Assembly: GCA_026387335.1 (NCBI GenBank)
Contig: JAPLLX010000001.1
Span: 170,620-234,619, forward strand
Source of the DNA: Candidatus Omnitrophota bacterium
Lineage (GTDB): Bacteria; Omnitrophota; Gorgyraeia; Gygaellales; Profunditerraquicolaceae
Direction: 5' to 3'
DNA length: 64,000 nucleotides
In this document: positions 4,077-54,449 of the stretch, piece after piece
Numbering within the stretch: position 1 is the first letter of the stretch
Layout of the letters: each line of letters opens with the position of its first letter
Position numbers and translations under genes: made by a program
Notes under the pieces: generated by a model
Told to the model about the DNA's origin: nothing
What the model saw: the letters and a program-made list of their open reading frames with translations, nothing else
Databases searched by the model: none

Positions 4077-4120
4077 TTTTCCCCCGAAAAAGTGTATACG
4101 GCGAAGAGCTAAGGGAAGGC

Positions 4121-15601: not shown

Positions 15602-17679
15602 TTAATCTGATAGTAGTGAATGCAATCGTAATCTTTAGCTCTTGGATAATTGCAAGAAAGTATTTTGGCGTGCGTTTATTTAGTGAATTAATTTTAGTTT
15701 GGTTTATATTGTTCTTTGCTCAAATAGTCTTAGTTGAGATGATATTGGGAATTTTCAATCTGCTCTTTTTTAAGAATGTCTTTTCCGTACACCTGTTAAT
15801 TCTTATATTTATATTGTTGATAAGCCGCAAGAGAAGAATTGCCGAGTTTTTAAAACCTGATTTAGAATTTTTTGTAAATAGCAAATTGCTTTTTTTTGCC
15901 TTCTCTGTATTTGCAGCATTTTTCTTAGTGAGAATAGTTATTAATTTAATGACACCGGCTGTGTTCCCTGACGGATTGCAAATCTATTTATCTTTTCCTG
16001 CAACTTGGATTAAAAGCGGAAATTTGGATAATCCGGTAAATATATTCGGAGCATCGCCTATATTAAACGCAAAATTCTTGCAAACCAGTGCGACTTCTTA
16101 TTATCCTATTAATGGCCAGCTATTCTTTGCCTGGCTTATGTTGCCATTAAGAAGTTCATTCTTAGCAAATATTGGGCAGGCCCCATTTTACATAACAGGT
16201 ATAGCAGTTTTTTATTCAATATTAAGGAAATATGATTTAAATAGAACGATTGCCCTCTTAAGCGGCTTTCTTTGGGCCCTTATCCCTAATATTTTTAAAC
16301 AATTTAGGAATGGCGCTCAAATTGACATCATTTGTTCAGTCTTGGTGCTTTTGTTTTTTTACACAATTTTATTGCTTAAACTGAATTTTACTTTTAAGAA
16401 CGTAATCTTGTTTGGTATATCGGCGGGGCTTTTAATTGGAACTAAGGTTATTAATATTGTATGGTTTGCTGCTTTTCTACCTTTTACCTGTTATGTGTTA
16501 TTTAATGGGATAAAGGAAAACAAGCTTACAATGAGCAAGGTATTAAATTTTACAGGAGTCATTGCTTTAATGGTTATTTTATTCGGTGGTTTCATATATA
16601 TAAAAAATTATATTTTTACTGGTAACCCTCTGTTTCCTGTGAGCTTAAAAGTTTTCGGTGTCACTATCTTTAATGGTTTGCTTGATAACGCCGCATATGG
16701 AATGCAAATTGCCAGCGGAGATAAATTTGATTTAATGAGAATAATTTTTAAAGAAGGTTTAGGTGCGCAATTTTTAGTTTTAGTTTTACCCGGTTTGTTT
16801 CTGCCGGTAGTATTTTTTGCGTATTTAAGAAGAAAGTGCCAGCCTTTTGGAGAGTACGTGCTGATTTTTATCACACCGCTTATAATGTTTTTCTTATATT
16901 ACTTTCTTGTTAATGTGTACGTAGTCAGGTATCTTTTTCCGTTTATAAGTATGGGGTTGATAACTGCCGTTATTTTTATAAGCAGGTTACCTCGCGGAGA
17001 GAGATATTTGACATTGGTTTCATTTATAGCAATTTTTGTTTCAGCTTCCGAATTAGCTCATAGATATGAACTTATTACTTCGCTTTTGCTTTCTTTGATA
17101 TTCTTTATAGCATTAGTAGCATATAAAAAACAATTCATTTCATTTTATAAGAGCAAAGCATTTACTAAGAAGATGATTATTTTATTATCCGTGGTGTTAA
17201 TATTTCTAGGTTACCTAAATGAAAAATATAATAAAGAGGCATATGACCGCTATCCTCTAAGTTTCAGCAAGAAGGAAGCATCGCAGAGAGATATAGCTAG
17301 AGGTTGGAAGGCTCTCAATGACTTAACCGGGCCAGGCGCGCGAGTTGCTTATACCGGCAGGCAGGAGTTTTACCCTTTATTCGGCACGCGGCTTAAGAAT
17401 TATGTAGTCTATGTGTCTATTAATGAAAAAGAAGTTTCTCCTTATAATGAATTTGATGGGTTATTCCGGCAAACCAAGGATTTCCTTGCCTGGAGGATAA
17501 ATTTAAAGAGAGAAAAAATTGAGTATTTATTTATAGCGCATCCATTTTTTAATAGCCGTGAATCGGAAGATCCTGCTAAATTTCCAGTTGAAGATGAATG
17601 GGCTGTTGCGCATCCCGAAGATTTTAAGCTTTTATACAATAATTCATTAGCTCATATATATAAAATTTTAATTAAATAA
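15598..17679 (+). CDS. large polytopic membrane protein, GT-C-like partner of the GtrB-like GT2
   Basis: 693 aa with many TM helices followed by a soluble C-terminal domain. ATGA overlap with the upstream GtrB-like gene. Confidence 0.55.
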   Translation: MINLIVVNAIVIFSSWIIARKYFGVRLFSELILVWFILFFAQIVLVEMILGIFNLLFFKNVFSVHLLILIFILLISRKRRIAEFLKPDLEFFVNSKLLFFAFSVFAAFFLVRIVINLMTPAVFPDGLQIYLSFPATWIKSGNLDNPVNIFGASPILNAKFLQTSATSYYPINGQLFFAWLMLPLRSSFLANIGQAPFYITGIAVFYSILRKYDLNRTIALLSGFLWALIPNIFKQFRNGAQIDIICSVLVLLFFYTILLLKLNFTFKNVILFGISAGLLIGTKVINIVWFAAFLPFTCYVLFNGIKENKLTMSKVLNFTGVIALMVILFGGFIYIKNYIFTGNPLFPVSLKVFGVTIFNGLLDNAAYGMQIASGDKFDLMRIIFKEGLGAQFLVLVLPGLFLPVVFFAYLRRKCQPFGEYVLIFITPLIMFFLYYFLVNVYVVRYLFPFISMGLITAVIFISRLPRGERYLTLVSFIAIFVSASELAHRYELITSLLLSLIFFIALVAYKKQFISFYKSKAFTKKMIILLSVVLIFLGYLNEKYNKEAYDRYPLSFSKKEASQRDIARGWKALNDLTGPGARVAYTGRQEFYPLFGTRLKNYVVYVSINEKEVSPYNEFDGLFRQTKDFLAWRINLKREKIEYLFIAHPFFNSRESEDPAKFPVEDEWAVAHPEDFKLLYNNSLAHIYKILIK

Positions 17680-19076
17680 TGAAAATAGCGCTTGTATATC
17701 CACCGTCCCAGGAATTAAACCTTAAGGGGTATCCTTTAGGGCTGGCATACCTATCGGCCTCTTTAAAAAGAAAACATAAGGTGGATGTATATGATTATAA
17801 TGGCAGGGAGTTTAAGAAGAGCTTGAATTTGTTTTTTAATTCTGTCAGACAATCTAAGCCTGATTTAGTGTCAGTTTCTTTTAATTCCTTTAACCGCTGG
17901 GCTGCGTATAAAATAATTAATAAGGTTAAAAATATCAATAAGGATATTATTGTTGTTTTGGGAGGGGTTCATCCCTCTACAATGTATACCCAGATTTTTC
18001 AAAATTTCTTTGATGATATTGATTTTATTATTCAGTCAGAAGGCGAGAGCTCACTGTATAAGTTATGCAGTGCTTTAGAAACAGGATCAGATTACAAAGA
18101 AATAAGCGGATTAGTTTATAAAGACGGTGACAAAACTTTTAAAGCAAATCCTGTTACCCAGATTGCCGCTAATCTTGATGATTTACCTCTTCCGGATTAT
18201 TCATATGCTTCTCAAAGGATAATGGAGAGCGGGTCCGCGTATCTTATTACTTCCCGGGGATGCCCGGTTAACTGTTCTTTTTGCTCAACTTCTTCTTTTT
18301 GGGGACAGAACGTTAGGATGAATTCTCCGGAAAGAGTGGGAGAGGAAGTGGATTATGTAAAAAGTTTAGGCGCCAAGAGAATCTTTTTTCATGATGATAC
18401 TTTTAATCTCGGGATTGAGAGGACCATTAAGCTGGCCGAGATACTGAAAAATAAGAAAATTGAATATGCTGTTTCTTGCCGGGTAAAGCCCGTGAATGAA
18501 GAAATGGTCGCCAGATTAGTTGAGTCTGGCTGCAGGCATATAACCTGGGGGGTAGAGAGCCTATCCGATAAGATATTGCAGACAATTGATAAGAAGATTA
18601 CTAAAGAAGAAGCGAAGAATGCTTTTGATATCTGCTCTAAATATACTGATAGATTGACTACCAGCGGATTTTTCTGTGTCGGAATCCCGGGTGAAGCTGA
18701 AGAAACAATCAATGAAACAGTTGATTATTTGAATAAATTTATCAAGTCTACCCATGGGCCGGGAGCGTCTATGCTCTATATTTTGCCTGGGACAAAGATT
18801 TACAGGGAGTTGGTTAAGTCTGGGGAGTTTGACGAAAGCATATGGATAAAGACCAATTCAGTTTATTATTATACTGAAGAACATAGTATGAAGGTTTTAA
18901 ATAGATGGAGGAAGAGAGTCAATTCTAGTGGGATAAGGTTGCCATCCAACCTTAAATATTTTTGGGATTATGCCTTGGTTAATAAGGAAGATAATGCGGG
19001 CAGGTTAAGAAAAGCGCTTCGTAAGAATGTCAGGAAAATAACCAGATTTATAAATATGCTGCGCAACAGATACTAG
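17679..19076 (+). CDS. cobalamin-binding radical SAM protein (third paralog)
   Basis: TSRGCPVNCSFCS CxxxCxxC motif. N-terminal B12-binding-like region. Confidence 0.75.
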   Translation: MKIALVYPPSQELNLKGYPLGLAYLSASLKRKHKVDVYDYNGREFKKSLNLFFNSVRQSKPDLVSVSFNSFNRWAAYKIINKVKNINKDIIVVLGGVHPSTMYTQIFQNFFDDIDFIIQSEGESSLYKLCSALETGSDYKEISGLVYKDGDKTFKANPVTQIAANLDDLPLPDYSYASQRIMESGSAYLITSRGCPVNCSFCSTSSFWGQNVRMNSPERVGEEVDYVKSLGAKRIFFHDDTFNLGIERTIKLAEILKNKKIEYAVSCRVKPVNEEMVARLVESGCRHITWGVESLSDKILQTIDKKITKEEAKNAFDICSKYTDRLTTSGFFCVGIPGEAEETINETVDYLNKFIKSTHGPGASMLYILPGTKIYRELVKSGEFDESIWIKTNSVYYYTEEHSMKVLNRWRKRVNSSGIRLPSNLKYFWDYALVNKEDNAGRLRKALRKNVRKITRFINMLRNRY

Positions 19077-19104: not shown

Positions 19105-20139
19105 ATGAGAGAAAGTGTGTTAAAATTATTAAGATGTCCGGCCTGCAAAAGCAACTTATTGTCCTTACGCAAAGAAACCGTCAATGAGATTGAGACTAGA
19201 ACCGGCAGGATTGTGTGTAATAATTGCAGCGCAGATTATAAGATTGAAGATGGGATAATTAATTTTCTCCATAATGCCAATGAGGGAGTTTTGCGTGAAA
19301 GAAAGGCTATGGATGACGATGAGTACATTGTTGATGAAAGTGGCATTAAATATAGAATATCAAATGAAACGATAGAAAAGTTTAAAGATAAATTTCTTGC
19401 TTTGCCCGAAGGAGATGGTTCGTATTTCTTCAAGGCTAACGGAAGTTTTCAGACCACTGCCGAAGCATCAGGTAGATTTTATTCCGCATTAGCGGACCTA
19501 AACCTTAGCGGAAAGGAAAGTGTATTAGAGGTAGGCTCATGTTTTTCTTACGCCTCTTTTAATTTTGCTAAAAAAGGATGTAGTGTAGTCGCTACGGATA
19601 TAAGCAACTACTTAAAGGCCTCTAACCTTTTTATAAAGCAGGCGTATTTTGAAAGAATATTTTCGGATATGCACTATATACCATTTATGGATAATTCATT
19701 TGACATTGTGTTTGGTTCAGCGATTCTTCATCACAGTAAAGACTTGAAAAAAGTTTTTAGCGAGATATACAGGGTTTTAAAGCCAGGAGGCAGGCTTTTT
19801 GTGATTAACGAAGCATGTAGAGGGGTTTTAGAAAAAGTCCATCCAGTTTTTAAGAAAATGGAAGAAAAAGGTTTCGCGGACACCTCTTATACTATTCCGC
19901 AATTTATTAAGGGAGCCAAAGCCGGTGGTTTTAGAAAGGTAAAGGCTATATTTTCGTCCTTAGCCGATGATTATATCTTGAGGCGTAAAAACAGGAATCC
20001 TGACGAGCGCACCTTTAAGCTGGAATTAGCTAACTTTTTTAAGAAACACAGAAGATTAGAGCGTTTAGTATCTTTTTTTATGATACTGCCGAGATTATTA
20101 TTCAGGCCGAAAAGCTGGAAGCTTATTTGCTATAAATAA
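19105..20139 (+). CDS. SAM-dependent methyltransferase with N-terminal Trm112-like zinc ribbon
   Basis: CPACKSN ... CNNCSADYKIEDGIINF, then the MTase motif VLEVGSCFSYASFNFAKKGCSVVATDIS. Confidence 0.7.
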   Translation: MRESVLKLLRCPACKSNLLSLRKETVNEIETRTGRIVCNNCSADYKIEDGIINFLHNANEGVLRERKAMDDDEYIVDESGIKYRISNETIEKFKDKFLALPEGDGSYFFKANGSFQTTAEASGRFYSALADLNLSGKESVLEVGSCFSYASFNFAKKGCSVVATDISNYLKASNLFIKQAYFERIFSDMHYIPFMDNSFDIVFGSAILHHSKDLKKVFSEIYRVLKPGGRLFVINEACRGVLEKVHPVFKKMEEKGFADTSYTIPQFIKGAKAGGFRKVKAIFSSLADDYILRRKNRNPDERTFKLELANFFKKHRRLERLVSFFMILPRLLFRPKSWKLICYK

Positions 20140-20161: not shown

Positions 20162-21409
20162 ATGACTTTGCGCGAGAAGATTTTAGTTGTATGTGAGAAG
20201 ATGATTTATTGGGGGATAATCCTTATACCGTTTGTGGTAAGTTTCTCTTCAGCCGCGGTAAATATCTTTATCGGTTTTGTAATTGTAGGATTCTTGGCTA
20301 AGAGGATAATCTTACGGGATCGCTCGTTCATTAAAACTCCCGTAAGTATCCCGTTTCTTTTGCTTATCGCAATCGCGTTGGTTTCCTTTATAAATTCAGT
20401 GAATATAAAATCCAGTATCCAAGGCATTGAAAAACTACTTAAATACGGCTTTTTGTTTCTGATTATGGTTGCGGAAATTAAAGATAAAAAACATGTTCAA
20501 AGGATAGTCGTAGCTATTATTGCCGGTTTGTTCCTGGCCTCAGCGGATGGTTTTTACTCGCTTATTTTCGGTAAAGATCTGTTTAACGGAGAGCCTCCGC
20601 AGTTTGTAATCGGTTTATCCCGGATAAGGGCAGCTTTTCCGCATACAAATATCTTCGGTGGCTATCTTACATTGTTTTTGGCGCTTCCCATATCATTAGC
20701 GCTGTATTATTTAAAAGGCCGTAAAAAGGTATTAGTAAGCATAGTCTCAGCTTTTGTGCTTTACGCCTTGATTTATACGTTTTCACGCAGCGCCATTTTG
20801 GGGGCATGGGTGGCAGTGCTTTTTATGGCATTAATAAAAAAGGATAAAATTATCCTTTTATTACTTCTATTATCGGTTATTTTATTGCCAATACTTATCC
20901 CGCGAAATATCGCGAATTGGGCAAGTAAGCAGGCATCTGTCTGGCAGATTGTTTTTGACGATACAAGGCTTAGTATATACCGGACATCTTTAAATATGAT
21001 TCAACATCACCCTATGATAGGGGTAGGGGTAAATACCTACTGCCTTAATTTCCAAAAGTATAAAGTGTATGAGAGCGAAGATTATACCGGCGATACCCAA
21101 TGGTACGCTCACAATATTTATTTGCATATGGCAGGTGAAATAGGCTTAACCGGATTGTTAATATTCATTTGGTTGCTTTTCATAGTTTTTAAGTATTGGG
21201 CTTATTTTTACCGTAGGGTTAACGGCGATGAATTCCTTAAGACTTGCAGTTTGGGTATTACCGCTGGCCTTGTAGCATTCCTTATTAACGGAATGACTGA
21301 AACAAATCTGTATTATTCTAAGATCGCGACATTTTTCTGGTTTCAAATCGGTTTATTACTGGCAATCATTAAATTAAAAAGAGGTGATTATGAAAAACGA
21401 AAAAATTAA
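20162..21409 (+). CDS. O-antigen ligase/Wzy-family membrane protein (second copy)
   Basis: Polytopic, with TFSRSAILGAW. RBS GGAGAG upstream. Confidence 0.65.
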   Translation: MTLREKILVVCEKMIYWGIILIPFVVSFSSAAVNIFIGFVIVGFLAKRIILRDRSFIKTPVSIPFLLLIAIALVSFINSVNIKSSIQGIEKLLKYGFLFLIMVAEIKDKKHVQRIVVAIIAGLFLASADGFYSLIFGKDLFNGEPPQFVIGLSRIRAAFPHTNIFGGYLTLFLALPISLALYYLKGRKKVLVSIVSAFVLYALIYTFSRSAILGAWVAVLFMALIKKDKIILLLLLLSVILLPILIPRNIANWASKQASVWQIVFDDTRLSIYRTSLNMIQHHPMIGVGVNTYCLNFQKYKVYESEDYTGDTQWYAHNIYLHMAGEIGLTGLLIFIWLLFIVFKYWAYFYRRVNGDEFLKTCSLGITAGLVAFLINGMTETNLYYSKIATFFWFQIGLLLAIIKLKRGDYEKRKN

Positions 21410-22187
21410 GGTAGTTATTTTATGCGGCGGCAGAGGAACGCGTTTAAGAGAAGAGACTGAGATAAGGCCGAAACCGTTGGTAGAAATCGGCAGTAGACCG
21501 ATTTTGTGGCATATCATGAAGACTTATTCTCATTATGGTTTTAAGGATTTTGTGTTATGCCTGGGGTATAAAGGCGACCTTATTAAAGATTATTTCTTAA
21601 ACTATGAAGCAATGAATAACGATTTTACCATTAATTTAGGCAACCGCAGTAATGTTATCTTTCATAATTCACATCTTGAAAAAGATTGGAACGTAACCCT
21701 GGTAAATACGGGAGCTCATGCGCAGACAGGTGCCCGGATAAAAAGAATTGAAGAGTATATTGACAGCGAAACTTTTATGGTTACATATGGAGACGGGGTT
21801 GGCGATATAAATATTAAGGAATTGCTCGAGTTTCATAGAGAAAATAAGAGTATTGGCACATTGACGGGTGTTCATCCATCTTCGCGATTTGGCGAGCTTT
21901 TGGTGAAAGGAAAGAATATTGTTGAATTTAATGAAAAGCCCCTGGTAAGTCAGGGTTTTATAAACGGAGGGTTTTTCATATTTAATAGAGAATTATTTCA
22001 TTATTTAAGTAATGAAGATAAATGTACGCTTGAACATGAGCCGCTAGGAAAGCTATCTAGAGATGGAAAACTTTCTGTTTATAAGCATGATGGTTTTTGG
22101 CAGTGTATGGATACTCAGCGTGAGCTTGACATATTGAATGATCTCTGGAAGCAAGGAAAGGCCCCTTGGAAGATTTGGAAGGATTAA
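21390..22187 (+). CDS. rfbF: glucose-1-phosphate cytidylyltransferase
   Basis: KVVILCGGRGTRLREETEIRPKPLVEIGSRPILWHIMKTYSHYGF is the canonical RfbF/DdhA signature. ATG 21390 is preceded by AGAGGTG. Confidence 0.9.
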   Translation: MKNEKIKVVILCGGRGTRLREETEIRPKPLVEIGSRPILWHIMKTYSHYGFKDFVLCLGYKGDLIKDYFLNYEAMNNDFTINLGNRSNVIFHNSHLEKDWNVTLVNTGAHAQTGARIKRIEEYIDSETFMVTYGDGVGDINIKELLEFHRENKSIGTLTGVHPSSRFGELLVKGKNIVEFNEKPLVSQGFINGGFFIFNRELFHYLSNEDKCTLEHEPLGKLSRDGKLSVYKHDGFWQCMDTQRELDILNDLWKQGKAPWKIWKD

Positions 22188-22190
22188 TAT

Positions 22191-23165
22191 ATGCCTAAGA
22201 GTTTTTGGAAAAATAAGAAGGTTTTGGTTACAGGTTATGAAGGGTTTCTTGGATCTTGGTTAGCAAAGACTTTAGTCGAGTTAGGCTCAAGGGTAGTCGG
22301 TATCGATATAATCAAAGACAGGCCACATTCAGTGTTGGAAGGCTACAGGAAAAGACTGGTTTCTATAAAGGCAGATGTATCAAATTTAAGCTTAGTCCGA
22401 AAAACGGTAATTGAGCATAGGCCCTCTGTAATCTTTCATCTTGCGGCAGAGGCTATAGTTGGACGCGCAAACATAGATCCAGTTAGGGCTTTTAAATCAA
22501 ACATTGAGGGGACTTGGAATATACTGGAGGCTTCAAGGGGTATGAAATTTATTGATTCGATAGTTGTAGCTTCCAGCGATAAAGCTTACGGCCCACATAG
22601 AGACCTGCCTTATTATGAAGATACAACAGCTTTAAAAGGCGATCATCCTTATGATGTTTCCAAAAGTTGCGCTGATCTTCTGTGCAATGCTTATTTTGTT
22701 TCTTTTAAATTGCCTGTATGTGTTACCAGATGCGGTAATATATACGGTCCGGGAGATAACAATTTCTCCAGGCTTATGCCGGATTTATTCAGGTCAATCG
22801 CAAGAAACAAAACCTTTATGATAAGGAGTGATGGAGCATTTACGCGCGATTATATTTATGTTGAGGATGTAATCAGTGGTTATATTTTACTCGGTGAGAA
22901 GATGAAGAGTAAGAATTTAGCTGGCCAGTCGTTTAATCTAAGTAACGAGAAGCCATTATCGGTAATTTCGATGGTTAAAACTGTTTATAAGCTGGCAGGT
23001 AAAAAGCCAAACTATAAAATACTTAATTCAACTTGCAATGAAATAAAAGACCAATATTTATGCTCATCAAAAGCAAAACGGATTCTTAGCTGGAAAGCAA
23101 GATACGAGTTATCCAAAGGATTAAACAAGGCAATGGGTTACTATATGAACAGGTTTAGCAGATAA
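22191..23165 (+). CDS. rfbG: CDP-glucose 4,6-dehydratase
   Basis: FWKNKKVLVTGYEGFLGSWL is the N-terminal signature of RfbG/DdhB. Confidence 0.85.
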   Translation: MPKSFWKNKKVLVTGYEGFLGSWLAKTLVELGSRVVGIDIIKDRPHSVLEGYRKRLVSIKADVSNLSLVRKTVIEHRPSVIFHLAAEAIVGRANIDPVRAFKSNIEGTWNILEASRGMKFIDSIVVASSDKAYGPHRDLPYYEDTTALKGDHPYDVSKSCADLLCNAYFVSFKLPVCVTRCGNIYGPGDNNFSRLMPDLFRSIARNKTFMIRSDGAFTRDYIYVEDVISGYILLGEKMKSKNLAGQSFNLSNEKPLSVISMVKTVYKLAGKKPNYKILNSTCNEIKDQYLCSSKAKRILSWKARYELSKGLNKAMGYYMNRFSR

Positions 23166-24118
23166 TGAATATAAATGGAAAAAACATTCTTATAACAGGT
23201 GCAACTGGTTTTGTTGGTGCCAATCTCGTCCGGTATTTTATAAATAAAAAAGCAAGGGTTAACATTTTTAAGAGAAAACAATCAGAATTATGGAGAATCA
23301 ATGATATAAAAAACAAATTTTTTTCGCACGATGTTAATCTTTTAAACCATGCGGATGTTAAGAGGGCAGTAAAAATAATTAAGCCGGAAGTAGTAATTCA
23401 TACCGCAACTTATGGCGGGCACGTAACCCAGCGAAATATTCCGCTTATCTTTAAGACTAATTTTGATGCAACGATAAATCTCTTAGATTCTTCCCTTAAG
23501 TCAGGAGCCGGTATTTTTATTAACACAGGATCAAGTTCAGAATATGGCCTCAAAAATTGCCCTATGAAGGAAACGGATGTGCTTAAGCCTATAACACCTT
23601 ACGGAGCTTCCAAGGCACTGGCGACAATTTATTGTCAATACGCGGCTAAGAAATTCAGTGTGCCTGTCGTAACGCTAAGATTATTTTCTCCGTATGGTTA
23701 TTATGATGACGTAAACAGGGCAGTTAGCTATTTGATTTTATCATGCCTCAGGAAAACTCCGCTGAATATTAAATCTCCTGATTCCGTAAGGGATTTTGTA
23801 TTTATTGAAGATGTAATAGAATCTTACGGGAATGTTTTAAGGAATAGTAGTAATTTATCCGGGGAAATATTTAATATAGGCTCGGGCAAGCAGTACTCTA
23901 TAAAATATTTGGCGGAGAAGATTGCGAGATTAACCGGTATGAATGCGCAGCTATCTTTCCAGAAGAAGAATAAAACTCTGATGACTGAGCCAAAAACCTG
24001 GGTAGCTGATTGCTCTTTATCTTTTAAGGAACTCGGCTGGAGTCCTAAATTTAATATTGAGGGCGGACTTAAGAAAACAATAAATTGGTTTAGGAGCAAT
24101 ATTGGTTTGTATTCTTAG
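23165..24118 (+). CDS. SDR epimerase/dehydratase-family protein; candidate CDP-sugar 4-reductase (YerF/RfbS-like)
   Basis: ILITGATGFVGANLVRYF; paralog of 12455..13399. It sits between rfbG and the YerE-like gene. Confidence 0.65.
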   Translation: MNINGKNILITGATGFVGANLVRYFINKKARVNIFKRKQSELWRINDIKNKFFSHDVNLLNHADVKRAVKIIKPEVVIHTATYGGHVTQRNIPLIFKTNFDATINLLDSSLKSGAGIFINTGSSSEYGLKNCPMKETDVLKPITPYGASKALATIYCQYAAKKFSVPVVTLRLFSPYGYYDDVNRAVSYLILSCLRKTPLNIKSPDSVRDFVFIEDVIESYGNVLRNSSNLSGEIFNIGSGKQYSIKYLAEKIARLTGMNAQLSFQKKNKTLMTEPKTWVADCSLSFKELGWSPKFNIEGGLKKTINWFRSNIGLYS

Positions 24119-24121
24119 CAT

Positions 24122-25915
24122 ATGAAATCTTCCGACTATATAATAAATTTTTTAAGCAAAAATAAAGTGACTCATGTTTTTGAGGTTTGCGGCGGTGCCA
24201 TCACGCATTTACTTGATTCGATGTATGGCAGGAAAGATATTGCTGCTGTGTCTATGCATCATGAGCAGGCAGCGGCGTTTGCTGCAGAAGGATATTCTAG
24301 GGCCAGTGGAAACATAGGTGTGGCTATGGCTACAAGCGGGCCAGGCGCAACAAATCTGATAACCGGTATTGGCAGCGCTTTTTTTGATTCAACCGCTACC
24401 CTGTTTATAACCGGTCAGGTAAACACATATGAATTTAAATTCAAAAAACCGATAAGGCAAAAAGGTTTTCAGGAGGCGGATATTGTAAGTATTGTTAGGC
24501 CTATTGTTAAAGAAGCGCATCTTATTGATAAACCGGAAAAAATTGTAAAAAACCTCAGAAAGGCTTTTTATACAGCAAAATCCGGAAGGCCGGGCCCTGT
24601 TCTTTTAGACATACCTATGGATATACAGCGTTTTAATTTGCCTTATAAGCGTGCGGATAAAGTTTATAATCTTAAATATATAAATTCCAGGCCTAGTTCT
24701 AAAGCGATCAGTCAAATAATAAGGCTTTTATCTATTGCTTCTCGACCAGTAATTATTTCCGGAGGCGGAGTGGGAATTTCCGGAGCAAGACAAGAATTGT
24801 TGTTATTATTAAGGAAAACCGGTATACCTGTTGTTGCTTCTTTGATGGGGTTGGATTCTTGCCCGCACGATATAGCAAATTACTGCGGGATGCTGGGAAC
24901 GTACGGCAACCGATATGCAAATTTGACTGTGGCTAATTCAGATTTAGTATTAGCTTTAGGCACTAGATTAGATACAAGGCAGACTGGCACAGTTTCTTCA
25001 ACATTTGCGCGTGGAGCAAAATTGATTCATATAGATATAGATCAATTTGAACTAAATAACAAGATTAAGGCGGATATTGGTTTAGTTTGCGATGTTAAGT
25101 TGTTTCTCGCAGCTTTAAATAAAAGTTTAACGAAATACAATAAAGCGCGTATATTGCCATGGATCAGTAAGACATTAGAATTTGAATGTAAATACCGGTC
25201 ATGGGTTAATCAGGAGGGCAACAATATAGCTCCAAATCTATTTATGCATATCCTTTCCGGATTTCTGCCCTCGGATGCTATAGTCTGCTTAGATGTTGGG
25301 CAGCATCAGATGTGGGCAGGGCAATCACTTGAGCTGAAAGAGAAGCAGATGTTGATTACGCAGGGGGGTATGGCTTCTATGGGATCCAGCCTACCTATGG
25401 CAATCGGCGCTTCTTTTGCCCAGCCGAATAGGCCTGTAGTTGTAATAACAGGTGACGGTGGATTCCAGTTAAATATCCAGGAGTTGGAAACTTTGCGTTG
25501 CCATAATCTTCCTGTTAAAATAATTCTGCTTAATAATAAAGGATACGGTATGATCCGTCAGTTCCAGCGGCAATATTTCGGGAGTAGATTTCAGTCTACA
25601 GTTAAAGGTTACAGCCAGCCTGATTTTAAGAAAGTAGTTTCAGCTTTCGGCATACCGGCAAGTCGGGTCGAAGGTATTGCTAGTTTAAAAAGTAAACTTA
25701 AGGAATTATTTAAGAGTAACAAGCCGGAATTTCTAGAAGTGATGATAGGTAAAAATAATTTAGTGCTTCCTAAGTTAGCTGTAAACAGGCCGATAGAGGA
25801 TCAGGATCCCCAACTTTCTTTTAATGAGTTAAAAAGCAATATGTTTATAAAGGCGCTGCCAAGAGTAGCCAATAGTTATGATAGAAAGAAGAATAAGAAA
25901 AAAAATATTCGATAA
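24122..25915 (+). CDS. thiamine-diphosphate-dependent acetolactate-synthase-like enzyme (YerE-like branched-sugar synthase candidate)
   Basis: ALS large-subunit-like three-domain protein of 597 aa, carrying TPP-binding GDGGFQ...NN. It is embedded between CDP-dideoxyhexose genes. Confidence 0.7.
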   Translation: MKSSDYIINFLSKNKVTHVFEVCGGAITHLLDSMYGRKDIAAVSMHHEQAAAFAAEGYSRASGNIGVAMATSGPGATNLITGIGSAFFDSTATLFITGQVNTYEFKFKKPIRQKGFQEADIVSIVRPIVKEAHLIDKPEKIVKNLRKAFYTAKSGRPGPVLLDIPMDIQRFNLPYKRADKVYNLKYINSRPSSKAISQIIRLLSIASRPVIISGGGVGISGARQELLLLLRKTGIPVVASLMGLDSCPHDIANYCGMLGTYGNRYANLTVANSDLVLALGTRLDTRQTGTVSSTFARGAKLIHIDIDQFELNNKIKADIGLVCDVKLFLAALNKSLTKYNKARILPWISKTLEFECKYRSWVNQEGNNIAPNLFMHILSGFLPSDAIVCLDVGQHQMWAGQSLELKEKQMLITQGGMASMGSSLPMAIGASFAQPNRPVVVITGDGGFQLNIQELETLRCHNLPVKIILLNNKGYGMIRQFQRQYFGSRFQSTVKGYSQPDFKKVVSAFGIPASRVEGIASLKSKLKELFKSNKPEFLEVMIGKNNLVLPKLAVNRPIEDQDPQLSFNELKSNMFIKALPRVANSYDRKKNKKKNIR

Positions 25916-27194
25916 TATAAGAGAATTATACAAAATTTCTTGTTGTGTCAATAAGAAAGCCGTTGTCAATCGTCCCATTCCTTATGCGGGCAGGGTGTAT
26001 AACGAGAAGGAGATTATCAACCTGGTGGATGCGTCTTTAGATTTTTGGTTGACCGCGGGTAGATATACGCAAAAATTTGAGAATTTATTATCCAGGTTTC
26101 TTAAGGTTAAATATGTTTCTTTTGTAAACTCTGGATCTTCAGCCAACTTATTAGCTATATCAGCGCTTACTTCTACAAAACTTAAGGACAGAAGGCTGAA
26201 ACCCGGTGATGAGGTGATTACTACTGCCAGTTGTTTTCCTACAACTTTGGCTCCGATTATACAAAATAGATTAGTGCCAGTATTCATAGATGTTGGTTTG
26301 GGAAATTACAATATAGAGGTTAAAAAGATTGAAAAAGCGATAAGTAAGAAGACTAAGGCGATATTCATAGCGCACGCCTTAGGTAATCCCTCCGATATTA
26401 AGACTATTTTAGATATATCCAGAAAATATAAGTTGTGGTTGGTAGAGGATAACTGTGATGCGCTGGGCTCTAAATATAATAATAAATATACCGGAACATT
26501 CGGCCATATTGCTACTTTAAGCTTTTATCCCGCGCATCATATAACTACTGGCGAGGGCGGCGCAGTAATAACTAACGATGGAGCCTTAAGCAGAATCGTT
26601 AATTCTTTTCGCGATTGGGGACGTGATTGTTGGTGTGAATCAGGTTATGATAATTCGTGCAAAAAAAGGTTCAGCTGGAAATTTGGGGAATTACCTTTTG
26701 GGTATGACCACAAGTATGTTTATTCTCATATAGGCTATAATCTTAAGGCCACAGATATGCAGGCAGCTGTAGGAGTGGAGCAGATAAAGAAGCTGCCAGG
26801 TTTTATCAGGAGAAGAAAAGAGAATTTCTTATTGCTATACAATGGGCTTAAGAGCCATGAGCATAGCTTAATACTCCCGGAATGGGAAAAAGGCGCTGAT
26901 CCTGCATGGTTCTGTTTTCCGATTACGGTTAAGGAGCGCGCAAGTTTTAAAAGAGAAGAGCTTACTGCATTTCTTGAGAAATCAGGAGTTCAGACAAGGT
27001 TAATTTTTGCCGGTAACGTGTTAAGACAACCTGCTTTTATGAACATAAAACACCGAGTTACTGGGGGGTTAGACAATACAGATATAGTTATGAAAAATTC
27101 ATTTTTCATAGGAGTTTACCCGGGGATTGAGCGAAAAGATACCCTGTATATAATTAGTCAATTTAATGCTTTCTTTAAGGAGCAAAGTAGATGA
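25878..27194 (+). CDS. rfbH: CDP-4-keto-6-deoxyglucose 3-dehydrase (E1)
   Basis: DegT-fold protein in which the PLP-lysine is replaced by histidine (SFYPAHHITTGEGG). It carries an exact C-X57-C-X1-C-X7-C [2Fe-2S] motif (NCDALG...DCWCESGYDNSC). Both are diagnostic of E1/DdhC. Confidence 0.85.
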   Translation: MIERRIRKKIFDNIRELYKISCCVNKKAVVNRPIPYAGRVYNEKEIINLVDASLDFWLTAGRYTQKFENLLSRFLKVKYVSFVNSGSSANLLAISALTSTKLKDRRLKPGDEVITTASCFPTTLAPIIQNRLVPVFIDVGLGNYNIEVKKIEKAISKKTKAIFIAHALGNPSDIKTILDISRKYKLWLVEDNCDALGSKYNNKYTGTFGHIATLSFYPAHHITTGEGGAVITNDGALSRIVNSFRDWGRDCWCESGYDNSCKKRFSWKFGELPFGYDHKYVYSHIGYNLKATDMQAAVGVEQIKKLPGFIRRRKENFLLLYNGLKSHEHSLILPEWEKGADPAWFCFPITVKERASFKREELTAFLEKSGVQTRLIFAGNVLRQPAFMNIKHRVTGGLDNTDIVMKNSFFIGVYPGIERKDTLYIISQFNAFFKEQSR

Positions 27195-27874
27195 AATTAA
27201 CAATTTTGGTTACTGTTTACAACGAGAAAGCTACTATACTTAAGGCAATCGAAGAGGCCAAAGGAATCCAGGTAGATAAGGAAGTTATTGTTATCGATAA
27301 TTGCTCAACGGACGGAACACGGGAGATCCTTAAGTCTCTGAATGATCAATCTATCCAGGTAGTCTATCAACCTTTAAATTACGGCTATGGCATGTCGGTA
27401 ATTACCGGGATGAGATTGGCTAAAGGCGAATATATGTATGTGCATAATTCCGATTTAGAGTATGATCCGGAATGCGTTTATAGAATGCTTAGCTTAGCTG
27501 AAAATGAAAATCTCGATGCTGTCTTTGGCTCTCGCTTGTCTTCCCGTAAGCAAGATTCAAGGTTTAAGATTCTCAAAGAGAGGCCCTTTTATTTAGGGAC
27601 TATGATTACAACAACACTGATCAATATTCTTTATAACAAGAATTTTACGGATATAATCGGCAATAGATTCTACCGTACGGATTCATTAAGAAAAGTAAGT
27701 CCTCAAATTTCTGGTATTGGTTTTGATTTTGAAGTGGTTAGTAAATTGTGCAAATACAGGTTTAATGTAAATGAAGTCCCGGTTAAATATTCTCCCAGGA
27801 CCTTGGGGAAGAAAATAAAAGTTTATGATATTGTGCCTGCACTGATGACAATATTAAAAGTTAAGTTCTTTTAG
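27191..27874 (+). CDS. short glycosyltransferase family 2 protein
   Basis: LTILVTVYNE ... VIDNCSTDGTRE. Confidence 0.65.
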   Translation: MKLTILVTVYNEKATILKAIEEAKGIQVDKEVIVIDNCSTDGTREILKSLNDQSIQVVYQPLNYGYGMSVITGMRLAKGEYMYVHNSDLEYDPECVYRMLSLAENENLDAVFGSRLSSRKQDSRFKILKERPFYLGTMITTTLINILYNKNFTDIIGNRFYRTDSLRKVSPQISGIGFDFEVVSKLCKYRFNVNEVPVKYSPRTLGKKIKVYDIVPALMTILKVKFF

Positions 27875-27883
27875 GATAAAATA

Positions 27884-28447
27884 ATGAAGCTGACAATAGT
27901 TATCCCAGTTCATAACCATAAAGATAATATACTTAAGACAATTGAAGAAGCTAAAAATATCCAGTTGGATAAGGAAATTATCGTGGTAGATAATTGCTCA
28001 ACGGACGGAACACGGGAAATTCTTAAAACCTTAAGCGGTAACGCGGTAAAGATTGTTTATCAGTCTAGGAATTACGGTTATGGGATGTCGGTTGTAACTG
28101 GAATGAATTTAGCGCAAGGCGAGTATTTGTTTATTCATAACCCTGAACTTGGAAACGATTTTAAACGTGTATATGAAATGTTGGATTTGGCGGAAAAAGA
28201 GAGTTTGGATGCTGTTTTTGAGCCTAGGCTGCTCGGTAAGAACTTCGGAATGGTTATCTATGCCGCGCTGGTTAGCCTTTTTTGCGGCAGAGATTTTAGC
28301 GATATAAACGGAAACAGGCTTTACAGGACAGCTTCTTTAAGGAAACTAGACCCCAAAGCCTCAAATATTGGTTTTAATTTTAAGGTGACCAGAAAATTAT
28401 GCAGAGATGGATTTAAGGTGAAGGAAGTTCCGGTAGGAAGAGGATGA
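27884..28447 (+). CDS. short GT2 paralog, C-terminally truncated relative to 27191..27874
   Basis: Same N-terminal motifs as the neighbour. It ends about 40 aa early and has an ATGA overlap with the next gene. Possibly degenerate. Confidence 0.5.
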   Translation: MKLTIVIPVHNHKDNILKTIEEAKNIQLDKEIIVVDNCSTDGTREILKTLSGNAVKIVYQSRNYGYGMSVVTGMNLAQGEYLFIHNPELGNDFKRVYEMLDLAEKESLDAVFEPRLLGKNFGMVIYAALVSLFCGRDFSDINGNRLYRTASLRKLDPKASNIGFNFKVTRKLCRDGFKVKEVPVGRG

Positions 28448-29562
28448 AAAATAAAAAACTCTTAATTGCTATTTTGACAGTTGCTGTTTTAATAAAATTC
28501 GGCTTATTTACTTTTGCGACGCTTCGGGTTCCTCAGAGCAAGTTTGACGGGGATTCCGAAAATTATTTAAATACCGCTTCAATGCTATATTCTAAAGCTG
28601 CGTTTGCGACTCAAGATAGCAATGGTAATCTTAGCCCCCATGTGCTGAGGACCCCCGGTTATCCTGTTTTTCTCGCTATCACGCATAATTTAATGAAGAT
28701 TCCTTTAAGCGGAGTGCTTTTCTTACAGGTTTTATTGACAATCCTGGTTGCTGGGATTGTTTATAAAACCTCGCTACAGATAGACAGCCGTATTGCTTTT
28801 TTAAGCGCGATAATTATATTGTTTGATCTGCCGATAACGGTCTTTTCCTTAAAGATTTTAACTGAGACCCTATTTTTATTATTAGTTTCAATTTTTATTT
28901 ATACGTTTATCAGGTATTTAAAAACAGGAAAAACCGGATTTATCCTGTTATCTTCTTGGCTGCTGGCTATGGCTACCTATACTCGGCCGATCAGCTATTT
29001 TTTAGGTGGAGCAACCGCTATTTTCATAGTTTATGCGAATGTGCTTAAGAATTTTAAAAGGGTTTTTACGCAGGCCTTGATTTTTCTGGTGATAGTTTAC
29101 AGTTTAATTGGCCTATGGCAAATCAGGAATTACCGGTGTTGCGGTGAAAAGTTTATCACTACTATCGCTAGATCTAACTTTCACTACTACGGATTAATTA
29201 AGGAGCCCCAGAGTAAACTTGATTACGCGTATGAATCCTGGCGGTCCTTTCTTTCTCTAATGACCCGGCCGGGGACACTGAAGTATTTCAATTCTAAGCC
29301 GTTAGCAATTACTGCTAAAGTATTAGCTTATCCCTGGATGGCTCTTTGGATGGTTGGTTTCTTGGTGGGTGTCTATAAAATAAGAAGGAATGTTTATTAT
29401 CAATTTCTGCTGCTGGTTATTCTCTATTTTGTCGGAGTCTCTGTTTTTAACCTCTCTTCGGCAGTTTCCGAGAGGTTCAGGGTGCCGATAGTGCCATGTA
29501 TAGCCATTATCTCCGCTTATGGCTGGTCAAACCTTTTAAATGGGGCTTTTAAGAAGAAGTGA
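28444..29562 (+). CDS. polytopic membrane protein, GT-C-like
   Basis: About 10 TM helices, with no recognisable soluble catalytic motif. Confidence 0.5.
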   Translation: MKNKKLLIAILTVAVLIKFGLFTFATLRVPQSKFDGDSENYLNTASMLYSKAAFATQDSNGNLSPHVLRTPGYPVFLAITHNLMKIPLSGVLFLQVLLTILVAGIVYKTSLQIDSRIAFLSAIIILFDLPITVFSLKILTETLFLLLVSIFIYTFIRYLKTGKTGFILLSSWLLAMATYTRPISYFLGGATAIFIVYANVLKNFKRVFTQALIFLVIVYSLIGLWQIRNYRCCGEKFITTIARSNFHYYGLIKEPQSKLDYAYESWRSFLSLMTRPGTLKYFNSKPLAITAKVLAYPWMALWMVGFLVGVYKIRRNVYYQFLLLVILYFVGVSVFNLSSAVSERFRVPIVPCIAIISAYGWSNLLNGAFKKK

Positions 29563-31921: not shown

Positions 31922-31947
31922 TTAACAGTTTTGTTAACTAACTATAC
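31912..31947. promoter_or_regulatory. perfect 16-bp inverted repeat (36-bp palindrome) GTATAGTTAGTTAACA-gttt-TGTTAACTAACTATAC; candidate autoregulatory operator or terminator
   Basis: Read directly. It overlaps the -10 and ends 4 nt before the ATG at 31952. Confidence 0.7.
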
Positions 31948-31951
31948 TCAG

Positions 31952-32545
31952 ATGAACTACACAAAAATTAAGTTATTAAATAAGCTTTACTTTAGCTACC
32001 GGGATATTTCAAGGGTGTTTGGCATATCTCCTGGCTCAGGGCGCGTTGCGGCTACAAGGTTGGTAAAAAGCGGCGACATCACCAGAGTTAAGAGGGATTT
32101 TTATATATTAAGCCAGAGATGGAGCTCTTCTTCTCTGGAAGACCGGTTTATTTTAGCTAACCTACTCCAAGTCCCTTCCTATATATCACTTATGACCGCT
32201 TTAAGTTATTATGAGATCACTACTCAGGTGCAGCGAGATTTTATAGAATCTGTGGGTTACTATAGGACTAAGCTGGTTGAAGTTAAGGAAAGTAGTTTCA
32301 ATTACAGTAAAATAAATAGAAAATTATATTTTGGGTTCGCAAAAATTAAGGGATTTTTTATCGCTAGCCCGGAAAAGGCGTTTCTTGACGCGATCTATCT
32401 TAAGTCTTTAAAAAAATATAATTTTGACCTTACGTCTATTGATCCTAGCAAGTTGAATATTAAGCGGATTAAACTAATGTCCGGAAAATATCCGTTATTA
32501 ACCAGGAAACTATTATTAAAATATGGATATCTTAAGAAAACATGA
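31952..32545 (+). CDS. AbiEi-like antitoxin / winged-HTH transcriptional regulator
   Basis: N-terminal wHTH signature ISRVFGISPGSGRVAATRLVKSGDITRVKRDFYIL. It is immediately upstream of the NTase gene. Confidence 0.6.
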   Translation: MNYTKIKLLNKLYFSYRDISRVFGISPGSGRVAATRLVKSGDITRVKRDFYILSQRWSSSSLEDRFILANLLQVPSYISLMTALSYYEITTQVQRDFIESVGYYRTKLVEVKESSFNYSKINRKLYFGFAKIKGFFIASPEKAFLDAIYLKSLKKYNFDLTSIDPSKLNIKRIKLMSGKYPLLTRKLLLKYGYLKKT

Positions 32546-33191
32546 AATATTTGAGATAGAGGTCCTGGAAAAGCTCAAGAATGGAGATTTCTTGAGGCCG
32601 CTTATTTTTATCGGCGGCACAATGCTTAGGCTTTGTTATGAGCTGAGCCGCTATTCCACGGATCTTGATTTCTGGTTTGTTAAAAAAACAGACCAAAAGG
32701 GTTATTTTAATAAACTCAAAAGTTATTTGAGCGGGTTTTATGAAGTTACTGACGCGCAGTTAAAGTTTAATAGCTTGCTTTTAGAGCTACGCAGTAAGAA
32801 TTATCCCAAGCGGCTTAAAATTGAAATCAGGAAAGAGCTTAGGGAGTGTGATATTCAGGAAAGAATCGCCTTTTCAAAATATAGCACTAACCAAGTTGTT
32901 TTAAGGGTGATTGTCCTGGAAGAAGCAATGAAGTATAAGATTATGGCGGCTTTAGATAGAAAAGATATAAGAGATTTTTTTGATTTGGAGTTTTTGCTGC
33001 GGCAAGGTGTTGAGCTTAAGGCCAAAAGCAGTGATTTAGAAGCCTTGAGGGATATTGCAGAGGGTTTTAAAGATAAGGATTATAAGGTCGTTTTAGGCTC
33101 GCTTTTGGAGGCAGATTTGCGTAATTATTACGTGAAGAATAAATTTGAATTCTTAATAGCGAAGATAGATAACTTGGGGAAGAAAATATGA
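32523..33191 (+). CDS. AbiEii/AbiGii-family nucleotidyltransferase (putative type IV TA toxin)
   Basis: FIGGTMLRLCYELSRYSTDLDFWF is the Pol-beta NTase G[GS]...DhD motif of the DUF1814/AbiEii family. Confidence 0.65.
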   Translation: MDILRKHEIFEIEVLEKLKNGDFLRPLIFIGGTMLRLCYELSRYSTDLDFWFVKKTDQKGYFNKLKSYLSGFYEVTDAQLKFNSLLLELRSKNYPKRLKIEIRKELRECDIQERIAFSKYSTNQVVLRVIVLEEAMKYKIMAALDRKDIRDFFDLEFLLRQGVELKAKSSDLEALRDIAEGFKDKDYKVVLGSLLEADLRNYYVKNKFEFLIAKIDNLGKKI

Positions 33192-34646: not shown

Positions 34647-34659
34647 AGGAGTGTGTTAT

Positions 34660-44144: not shown

Positions 44145-44145
44145 A

Positions 44146-54367: not shown

Positions 54368-54449
54368 AACTCCTTGCAATTCCTACCTAGTTATGATAAT
54401 TTAATTAAGCTTTCCGCATTAATAATCTTTTAACTTGAGGATAAAAGAT

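Follow-up and report, generated by a model that had tools for sequence, protein, structure and literature searches.

In this work we describe a group of five adjacent genes in a 64,000-nucleotide stretch of DNA from a Candidatus Omnitrophota bacterium (GenBank assembly GCA_026387335.1, contig JAPLLX010000001.1, positions 170,620 to 234,619 of the forward strand); the whole stretch is called the window in what follows. All real genes of the window are on the + strand, and a Pfam scan of its 60 + strand open reading frames (ORFs) of at least 100 amino acids shows one large glycan gene cluster at positions 1 to about 40,200. The five genes, to which we refer as the cassette, lie within this cluster at 21390-27194. 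An initial annotation of the DNA had given their order as rfbF, rfbG, a short-chain dehydrogenase/reductase (SDR), a thiamine diphosphate (ThDP)-dependent enzyme resembling acetolactate synthase, and E1, and all of these ORFs are indeed found on the + strand:

21390..22187, + strand: glucose-1-phosphate cytidylyltransferase, RfbF/DdhA (TIGR02623, 344.3 bits, cut-off 300.25)
22191..23165, + strand: short, divergent SDR of 324 amino acids, like the CDP-glucose 4,6-dehydratases (top NCBIfam model TIGR02622)
23165..24118, + strand: extended SDR of 317 amino acids, NADPH-type (PF01370, no NCBIfam equivalog)
24122..25915, + strand: YerE-like ThDP-dependent carboligase of 597 amino acids with a fold like that of acetohydroxyacid synthase (AHAS) (three ThDP-enzyme domains by Pfam)
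25878..27194, + strand: E1, the CDP-6-deoxy-L-threo-D-glycero-4-hexulose 3-dehydrase RfbH/DdhC, 438 amino acids, a pyridoxamine phosphate (PMP) and [2Fe-2S] enzyme (NF011936)

The cassette proteins are identical to NCBI entries MCX5695240-MCX5695243, encoded on a contig of 328,928 bp, where they are labelled only as 'thiamine pyrophosphate-binding protein' or 'NAD-dependent epimerase/dehydratase'. The same order of nucleotidyltransferase, 324-residue SDR, 317-residue SDR, ThDP enzyme and E1 was found again in five loci, which we designate by our own numbers:

L005: Methanobacterium metagenome-assembled genome (MAG) GCA_016222945.1
L092: 584-kb ENA contig, Omnitrophota
L093: Omnitrophica WOR_2, GCA_001805465.1
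L094: GCA_041643235.1
L095: marine-sediment metagenome contig, the ThDP protein of which is named Scalindua by NCBI

The cassette is a conserved, mobile five-gene module; its orthologues share 42% to 75% identity and its neighbourhoods differ strongly between loci. There are small variations, i.e. a gene of the metallo-beta-lactamase fold (Lactamase_B, about 248 amino acids) stands between the dehydratase and the SDR in L005 (8279-9028) and L095 (4892-5635) but not in the window, and a NUDIX-like gene is inserted on the opposite strand in L094. More distant YerE-like genes occur beside rfbF, rfbG or rfbH in five further loci (L010-L014) from MAGs of Bacillota, Peregrinibacteria, Ryanbacteria, Sphingobacteriaceae and Micrarchaeia, and at least 120 protein clusters are at least 58% identical to the window ThDP enzyme.

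We propose that the cassette is probably one conserved module that would convert glucose-1-phosphate into a CDP-activated C-4-branched 3,6-dideoxyhexose, the likeliest product being the 4-C-(1-hydroxyethyl) sugar of the yersiniose type. This sugar is most likely destined for a surface glycan of the Omnitrophota bacterium. The yersiniose-like product had been predicted in the initial annotation, and the prediction is supported here in that the ThDP enzyme does not group with IlvB and the motifs of E1 are kept on alignment.

The enzymes of the cassette

The best match of the ThDP enzyme in the PDB is 5AHK (403.7 bits over residues 1-564), as compared to 350 bits for plant AHAS and 278 bits for E. 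coli IlvB. We take 5AHK to be PpYerE of Pseudomonas protegens, even though its molecule name in the PDB is 'acetolactate synthase II, large subunit'. Its sequence, as recovered from the alignment, is 83% identical to a P. protegens protein and has Val at residue 479, which fits the V479G/A variants described for PpYerE (PMC12247030); the window enzyme has Ile at this site. The two enzymes are 41% identical and share RPGPVLLDIPMDIQR, a GQVNT.E.K....RQ.GFQE loop and a G-M-[VI]-R-x-F-Q segment.

The separation from AHAS was analysed in an alignment of 42 sequences. The YerE-like side included YerE of Pseudomonas simiae and Yersinia aleksiciae, PpYerE, 10 environmental homologues and 7 genome loci for which the window enzyme is the best match, while the AHAS side consisted of E. 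coli IlvI and IlvB, Arabidopsis AHAS and 18 genome AHAS loci (3 of them from Omnitrophota). The two sides are split in 200 out of 200 neighbour-joining bootstrap replicates with the window enzyme on the YerE side; its identity is 40-41% to canonical YerE and 31-38% to AHAS. Two clade-specific characters were derived from an alignment of 19 YerE-like and 25 AHAS sequences. Firstly, a 6-residue insertion in the loop after GQV (window GQVNTYEFKFKKPIRQKGFQE) is present in all 19 YerE-like proteins and in none of the 25 AHAS. Secondly, Phe replaces the Trp of the AHAS RQWQ segment (RQFQ in the window) in 18 out of 19 YerE-like proteins and again in none of the 25 AHAS, which carry Trp except for E. 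coli IlvB (Gln) and the W574L mutant Arabidopsis chain that was used.

The ThDP enzyme also stays under every NCBIfam AHAS cut-off; the best model, TIGR00118, gives 509.7 bits against 538.35, and the PRK-type AHAS models are all short by at least 250 bits. No IlvH or IlvN homologue was found in the window (tblastn with the E. coli proteins, best E = 0.76). Most loci in a control set of 73 AHAS loci have ilvH directly downstream. This set comes from a contig scan with the ThDP alignment which gave, among the matches listed, 80 loci (7 YerE-like, 73 AHAS); the scan is not a census of the cassette, and its generic pattern ATSGPGAT[ND] mainly drew in AHAS. Other Omnitrophota genomes have a separate, genuine ilvB-ilvH pair (L020, L040, L076). 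The ThDP gene of the window is encoded beside rfbF, the dehydratase and E1, and similar surroundings are seen in L005, L010-L014 and L092-L097. The enzyme is, as judged from these sequence characters, YerE-type and not IlvB, as the initial annotation had suggested. In addition, the environmental YerE-like clade is extended at the C-terminus by about 30 conserved residues (window residues ~565-597, consensus ..DELKxNMxIxxLP..), and this extension is missing from the Pseudomonas and Yersinia YerE proteins.

The assignment of E1 had been regarded as secure, and all its grounds hold. The protein scores 683.5 bits with the RfbH model NF011936 (cut-off 423), and it aligns residue for residue with the Yersinia E1 structures 3BCX/3BB8 over positions 7-433 (E = 2.5e-149). 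The segment PAHHITTGEGG, starting at residue 218, places His220 where the lysine binding pyridoxal phosphate would be, and this column is invariant in the 12 aligned E1 proteins. The cysteines C193, C251, C253 and C261 correspond exactly to C-X57-C-X1-C-X7-C, and the motif is complete in 11 of the 12 proteins, i.e. in 10 of the 11 relatives of the window E1. It is the His-for-Lys replacement together with the Fe-S motif that sets E1 and SpnQ apart from aminotransferases and ColD (PMC8987622). The full motif in 10 of the 11 related proteins indicates selection on the Fe-S cluster, so that some donor has to reduce it. The ThDP gene and the E1 gene that follows it overlap by 38 nucleotides.

In the Candidatus Ryanbacteria MAG (L012, 5839-7167), a YerE-like gene is followed after about 1.2 kb by a gene for an E1 homologue. 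His220 and Cys193 are kept in this protein, and Tyr, Phe and Arg stand in place of the other three cluster cysteines. It is perhaps a 3-dehydratase of the CDP route that resembles ColD and works without an Fe-S cluster.

The initial annotation had also pointed out that no E3 reductase is encoded in the 64 kb, and both Pfam and tblastn bear this out. None of the E3 domains (Fer2, FAD_binding_6, NAD_binding_1) was detected in the 60 ORFs of the Pfam scan, six-frame tblastn of the window gave a best E of 3.0 with Salmonella RfbI and of 0.56 with the DdhD proteins of P. simiae and Y. aleksiciae, and no ferredoxin-type cysteine motif occurs in window ORFs of at least 50 amino acids. The absence is real, but it is less remarkable than it had seemed, as no E3 was found at E <= 1 (tblastn) in any of 14 other loci that contain E1, a YerE-like gene or both, including the rfbFGH plasmid loci of Azospirillum and Desulfobaculum. 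In the Salmonella, Pseudomonas and Yersinia clusters E3 is adjacent. Outside the gamma-proteobacterial O-antigen clusters, the loci of this sample thus have no neighbouring E3 as a rule. The Pyr_redox_2 protein at 60272-61183 was considered as a ferredoxin reductase for E1 and rejected: it keeps the CxxC motif (CGTC) and is an ordinary TrxB, with a thioredoxin gene at 54435-54773, about 5.5 kb upstream.

The first two enzymes of the cassette resemble their counterparts to a different extent. The cytidylyltransferase is 49% identical to Salmonella RfbF and 46-49% identical to the Pseudomonas and Yersinia DdhA proteins. The 324-residue SDR is 27-29% identical to RfbG/DdhB proteins (29% to Salmonella RfbG; E values between 1e-40 and 1e-44). 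It has SSDKAYG aligned with the TSDKCY of RfbG, YDVSK as its YxxxK motif, and an Asp of the NAD+ type that closes beta2 (GIDIIKD). This short form is kept in the same position, at 42-53% identity, in L005 and L092-L095. It is the sole candidate in the cassette for the 4,6-dehydratase that E1 requires, and we predict that it makes CDP-4-keto-6-deoxyglucose.

The 317-residue SDR contains SSSEYG and YGASK, which provide the Ser/Tyr/Lys triad, and it lacks the Asp of the dehydratases. The residue that closes beta2, an Asp in dehydratases and epimerases that retain NAD+, is Arg in this SDR and in 7 relatives, with Lys occurring once (the relatives being 6 cassette orthologues and a paralogue at 12455-13399 of the window, to which it is 39% identical). 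YerF and the CDP-abequose synthase RfbJ, which depends on NADPH, show the same Arg-for-Asp pattern in the alignment, and in line with SDRs in general we presume that this residue reflects the chemistry of an NADPH-dependent reductase. In all copies of the cassette (six loci, i.e. the window, L005 and L092-L095) the gene immediately precedes the ThDP gene. Since the branch carbonyl is the last carbonyl that remains after branching of the YerE type, its reduction is the role that we propose for this protein, which would make it a functional analogue of YerF.

The proposed pathway and its alternatives

The family memberships and motifs described above suggest a pathway in which each catalytic step is predicted from sequence. 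RfbF, the family of which is clear, would produce CDP-glucose from glucose-1-phosphate and CTP, and the 324-residue SDR, which carries the Asp-Lys pair of CDP-glucose 4,6-dehydratases, would convert it to CDP-4-keto-6-deoxyglucose. E1, in which all the defining motifs are present, would then remove the 3-hydroxyl group by PMP and [2Fe-2S] chemistry, yielding CDP-4-keto-3,6-dideoxyglucose. As no dedicated E3 is encoded nearby, the two electrons for this step may come from a general one-electron donor, e.g. a ferredoxin or a flavodoxin, by analogy with SpnQ, for which ferredoxin/ferredoxin-reductase or flavodoxin/flavodoxin-reductase pairs of general function serve as reductants (PMC8987622). 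The YerE-like enzyme would decarboxylate a 2-keto acid and add the acyl anion equivalent to the C-4 ketone, resulting in a 4-C-acetyl sugar, and the 317-residue SDR would use NADPH to reduce this to the 4-C-(1-hydroxyethyl) sugar. Finally, a conserved glycosyltransferase of family 2 (GT2) encoded downstream, perhaps together with a membrane protein of the GT-C type, might put the sugar into a glycan resembling lipopolysaccharide (LPS). The donor for the branching step is predicted to be pyruvate, so that a C2 (acetyl) branch would be added to C-4 of CDP-4-keto-3,6-dideoxyglucose, because no aldolase for the supply of a longer donor is encoded in the window: neither aldolase families nor an aldehyde dehydrogenase for a hydroxy-keto-acid donor were detected in the 60 ORFs of the Pfam scan. 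Clusters for longer branches encode an aldolase (PMC9306805).

Several points weigh against this reading. For the host and its close relatives the pathway is a prediction from genes. The 324-residue SDR reaches 206.9 bits with TIGR02622, which is under the cut-off of 278.45; the label rfbG used in the initial annotation therefore fits as to the best family and the catalytic motifs, but it has to be applied to a short, divergent form. Within the 64-kb window no electron donor for E1 was identified. The identity of the ThDP enzyme to characterised YerE is only about 40%, and because this raw value is modest the YerE-like assignment rests on the tree, the insertion and the gene context. The length of the branch is not fixed by homology, since YerE-like enzymes vary widely in donor preference (PMC12247030), and the stereochemistry of the product is not predictable from sequence. 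The comparison with yerE/yerF of Yersinia that had been drawn for the two neighbouring genes holds for yerE, through the tree, the insertion and the context, but not for yerF. BLASTP of canonical YerF, a 310-residue PF01370 protein, from P. simiae and Y. aleksiciae gave best E values of 0.28-0.33 with the 317-residue SDR, the other SDRs of the window are likewise without significant similarity to it (nothing at E <= 1e-3), and no YerF-like gene was found in the 14 related loci. As far as the sequences tell, the 317-residue SDR is homologous to YerF only through the SDR fold and is not its orthologue, even though the function is plausible; among solved structures, 4-epimerases and a CDP-tyvelose 2-epimerase are closest to it.

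It is conceivable, though rather unlikely, that the same chemistry gives something other than a simple C2 branch, i.e. that a longer or functionalised 2-keto acid is used, as for erwiniose or caryophyllose, or that the branch is further modified, for instance by the B12-radical-SAM enzymes or SAM methyltransferases encoded nearby, in which case the product would be a new branched sugar and not yersiniose. The wide donor range shown by ErwE, MMAR_2332, MyGE and JanthE (PMC12247030, PMC9306805) would allow this, and so would the distance of the window enzyme from canonical YerE, from which it also differs by the C-terminal extension; moreover, three genes for B12-binding radical S-adenosylmethionine (SAM) enzymes and several for methyltransferases are found in the same cluster. 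Set against this is the lack of an aldolase or aldehyde dehydrogenase in the 64 kb, whereas the erwiniose and caryophyllose clusters encode one. In addition, the cassette moves as a unit into differing neighbourhoods, which suggests that a central metabolite such as pyruvate is all it requires.

We consider it very unlikely that the 317-residue SDR is a C-4 ketoreductase or epimerase, which would lead to an unbranched sugar like abequose, paratose or tyvelose and leave the ThDP enzyme to some other substrate. It is true that the SDR is similar to the CDP-abequose synthase RfbJ (25% identity, E = 2e-16) and not to YerF, and that the CDP-tyvelose 2-epimerase is among its PDB matches, but the similarity to RfbJ is no better than that to other extended SDRs, and the dTDP-glucose dehydratase RfbB outscores it (E = 2e-23). 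The missing Asp of the NAD+ type speaks against an epimerase with tightly bound NAD+, and a C-4 reductase would remove the sole ketone open to the YerE-like enzyme. It would also be difficult to reconcile with the strict adjacent order of SDR, ThDP enzyme and E1 in six independent bacterial and archaeal loci.

As to the reduction of E1, pyruvate oxidase is known to oxidise hydroxyethyl-ThDP through FAD. YerE has been described as a flavoprotein (PMC4753412), and by analogy we speculate that the YerE-like enzyme might itself be the electron source of E1, with pyruvate acting both as reductant and as C2 donor. This idea is highly speculative and we give it very little weight, but it would fit the 38-nucleotide overlap of the ThDP and E1 genes, the C-terminal extension of the clade and the absence of E3 from all the related loci sampled. 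In a milder version, a low-potential ferredoxin of these presumably anaerobic lineages may reduce E1 directly, E3 being a later proteobacterial addition.

It is extremely improbable that E1 without E3 performs no 3-deoxygenation, so that CDP-4-keto-6-deoxyglucose would be branched to a 6-deoxy 4-C-branched sugar. The idea is prompted by the absence of E3 from the window and the 14 related loci and by the Ryanbacteria relative that has lost three of the four cluster cysteines, but it leaves the conservation of His220 and of the [2Fe-2S] motif in the window and 10 of the 11 relatives unexpected for a cluster that is never reduced. Besides, general ferredoxin or flavodoxin systems are sufficient for SpnQ (PMC8987622), and the rfbFGH loci of Azospirillum and Desulfobaculum are also without a nearby E3. 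Finally, that the ThDP protein is a true AHAS for branched-chain amino acids, standing by chance in a glycan cluster, is effectively refuted by the bootstrap separation, the YerE-clade insertion, the absent Trp, the lack of a small subunit in the window, the separate ilvB-ilvH pairs of other Omnitrophota and a TIGR00118 score that lies under its cut-off and far under the other AHAS cut-offs, in spite of this biosynthetic AHAS large-subunit model being the best match and several family members being named 'acetolactate synthase' by JGI and NCBI.

Comparison with known branching systems

The proposed route to a 4-C-(1-hydroxyethyl) sugar can be compared to the yersiniose A pathway of Yersinia pseudotuberculosis O:6 and Pseudomonas, for which we used the clusters of P. 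simiae and Y. aleksiciae, both arranged as ddhD-ddhA-ddhB-ddhC-yerE-yerF; ddhA-D, yerE and yerF have been described in P. simiae WCS417 (PMC4509608). The CDP-glucose route is common to both. The catalytic motifs of E1 are identical at 49-51% overall identity, the cytidylyltransferases are 46-49% identical, the ThDP enzymes belong to the same clade with the insertion and the Phe in common, and an SDR of the NADPH type adjoins the ThDP gene in both systems. The differences are also clear. Firstly, the window cassette has no ddhD/E3 and its reductase is not a YerF orthologue. Secondly, its dehydratase is short (324 as opposed to about 360 amino acids) and only 27-29% identical, and its ThDP enzyme carries the C-terminal extension. 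Thirdly, the gene order is SDR, ThDP enzyme, E1 instead of E1, YerE, YerF. Its hosts are found among uncultured Omnitrophota, methanogens and comparable lineages, as opposed to the gamma-proteobacteria of the yersiniose A clusters.

The erwiniose, caryophyllose and gastriose clusters (ErwE, MMAR_2332, MyGE) combine a YerE-like enzyme with an NAD(P)H reductase in cell-envelope glycan clusters and also act on CDP-4-keto-3,6-dideoxyglucose (PMC9306805), but there an aldolase builds a long hydroxy-keto-acid donor, and the window has none. SpnQ, the TDP-4-keto-2,6-dideoxyglucose 3-dehydrase of spinosyn biosynthesis, resembles the window E1 in being a PMP and [2Fe-2S] enzyme that lacks an E3 gene of its own; its substrate is a dTDP-sugar in actinomycete secondary metabolism, whereas the window E1 is of the CDP-type RfbH family, well above the equivalog cut-off. 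The biosynthetic AHAS enzymes (IlvB/IlvI/IlvG) have the same three-domain ThDP fold, the GDG...NN motif and the catalytic Glu, and the window enzyme differs from them by the missing small subunit, the Phe for Trp, the 6-residue insertion and its separate clade.

The characterisation of YerE dates from 1998 (Chen, Guo and Liu, as cited in PMC9306805), and ErwE, MMAR_2332, MyGE and JanthE are later extensions of the family (PMC12247030, PMC9306805). It is also established that acyl-branched sugars can be predicted from sequence (PMC9306805). Predicting YerE-like clusters from sequence is nothing new, and E1 genes often stand without an E3 nearby. The present cassette adds to this in that it has no E3, its dehydratase is short and divergent, its reductase is not orthologous to YerF, its gene order is changed, its ThDP enzyme is extended at the C-terminus, and it has spread into uncultured lineages including archaea.

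Branched 3,6-dideoxy sugars are rare and strongly antigenic constituents of the surface glycans of bacteria, and so far they are chemically known from a few cultured proteobacteria, mycobacteria and one spirochaete. The presence of the genes in Omnitrophota, Patescibacteria/CPR (Candidate Phyla Radiation), Micrarchaeia (DPANN), Methanobacterium and a contig with a protein named Scalindua suggests that such sugars are widespread on uncultured, probably anaerobic microbes, and the cassette would represent the smallest set of genes by which CDP-yersiniose-like sugars could be made. As E3 is consistently absent, the loci also pose the question of what reduces E1 outside the enterobacterial O-antigen clusters. 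The ThDP enzymes may be of interest for practical reasons as well, as new carboligases that accept ketones are wanted as biocatalysts for tertiary alcohols (PMC12247030).

Apart from the cassette, the glycan cluster contains a second ThDP system at 12455-14649 (+ strand), which we consider a putative second branching system on the basis of its gene content:

12455-13399, + strand: SDR of 314 amino acids, the 39% identical paralogue of the 317-residue SDR
13400-14149, + strand: Transketolase_N half of a split transketolase-like pair, 249 amino acids
14146-14649, + strand: Transket_pyr half of the same pair, 167 amino acids

Split-gene transketolases have been proposed for the branching of keto sugars, so far all from Streptomycetes and uncharacterised (PMC12247030). 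Similar arrangements were seen in two other loci. On the Desulfobaculum bizertense plasmid NZ_CP090010.1 (L009, 6036-11033) a split transketolase comes directly after rfbF, rfbG and rfbH, and another transketolase-like pair lies further on; in L094 (18562-19843) a split pair is located near a Bac_transf gene and a DegT aminotransferase gene. These two loci suggest that branching of CDP-4-keto-3,6-dideoxyglucose by transketolase-type enzymes occurs outside the actinomycetes. In L092 (1140-4037), an aldo-keto reductase gene followed by a pair for the alpha and beta chains of pyruvate dehydrogenase (PDH) E1 lies about 6 kb upstream of the YerE-like cassette; this arrangement is similar to Pau7/Pau11/Pau12 of paulomycin biosynthesis, which carry out C-4 acetyl branching and reduction (PMC4753412).

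Flanking genes and other features of the window

The cassette is flanked by genes that may be concerned with the transfer of the sugar:

20162..21409, + strand: membrane protein of the Wzy_C/O-antigen ligase-like type, directly upstream of the cassette (PF04932)
27191..27874, + strand: small soluble GT2, 227 amino acids (PF00535)
27884..28447, + strand: tandem GT2 paralogue, 187 amino acids (PF00535; 54% identical to the 227-residue GT2)
28444..29562, + strand: polytopic GT-C-like membrane protein, PMT_2 (PF13231, E = 1e-7)

A Wzy_C gene before the cassette and the same small GT2 gene directly 3' of E1 are found in three Omnitrophota loci, i.e. the window, L092 and L093. In L093 the upstream product is 55% identical to that of the window and holds the same position, and the downstream GT2 is 70% identical in L093 and 53% in L092. 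The 227-residue GT2 has weak NCBIfam matches to AglJ, PpgS, ArnC-type and dolichyl-phosphate hexose transferases, and from these relationships we regard it as a candidate for the enzyme that takes the CDP-sugar, possibly onto polyprenyl phosphate. Its 187-residue paralogue lacks the C-terminal part. The PMT_2 protein, in which a crude Kyte-Doolittle scan shows eight hydrophobic segments, is possibly a periplasmic transferase that uses a sugar linked to polyprenyl phosphate; its link to the cassette comes from adjacency.

A comparable situation exists in Y. aleksiciae (L097, 11632-15264), where ddhDABC-yerEF are followed by a GtrA-like gene, a GT2 gene and a gene for a large DUF7024 membrane protein. 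The 227-residue GT2 of the window is 26% identical to the GT2 that is encoded downstream of yerF and the GtrA-family gene. The genes following yerF suggest a Gtr-type polyprenyl phosphate route for the addition of yersiniose in Y. aleksiciae, and for the window GT2 and PMT_2 proteins we might tentatively assume delivery through a lipid-phosphate carrier into an LPS-like glycan.

The rest of the glycan cluster encodes a Bac_transf initiating transferase, WecG, two Wzy_C-like proteins, many GT2 enzymes, two heptosyltransferase-like proteins of glycosyltransferase family 9 (GT9), ManC, a carbamoyltransferase, the three B12-binding radical SAM enzymes and the methyltransferases. Beyond the cluster lie housekeeping genes, namely priA, fmt, gap, pta-ackA, pckG and purC. 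The G+C content of the cluster (1-40000) is 33-40% for the most part and climbs to 42% near the downstream end, while the housekeeping part (40000-64000) has 41-45%. The GC skew is positive across the entire window and fits the layout of the genes on one strand.

The B12-binding radical SAM genes are located at 671-2074, 4899-6359 and 17679-19076 (+ strand), each with a methyltransferase gene near it (94-678, 3959-4912 and 19105-20139), and it is possible that these genes serve C-methylation or other radical tailoring of the sugars of the cluster. Genes of the B12-radical-SAM type likewise flank the cassette in L094. Between the GT9 heptosyltransferase-like and ManC genes there is an AbiEi/AbiEii toxin-antitoxin pair (31931-33191, + strand) as well as a second small ORF with an NTP_transf_8 nucleotidyltransferase gene (34651-35641, + strand). 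In the housekeeping part, two tandem paralogues of the GalT/HIT family (341 and 333 amino acids, with GalP_UDP_tr_C and DUF4921 matches) are encoded at 43119-45147 (+ strand) between fmt and gap. At the edge of locus L093, from 21532-21746 onward, the gene calls include a 799-residue Polysacc_synt_2/Epimerase protein with an intein (PF14890).

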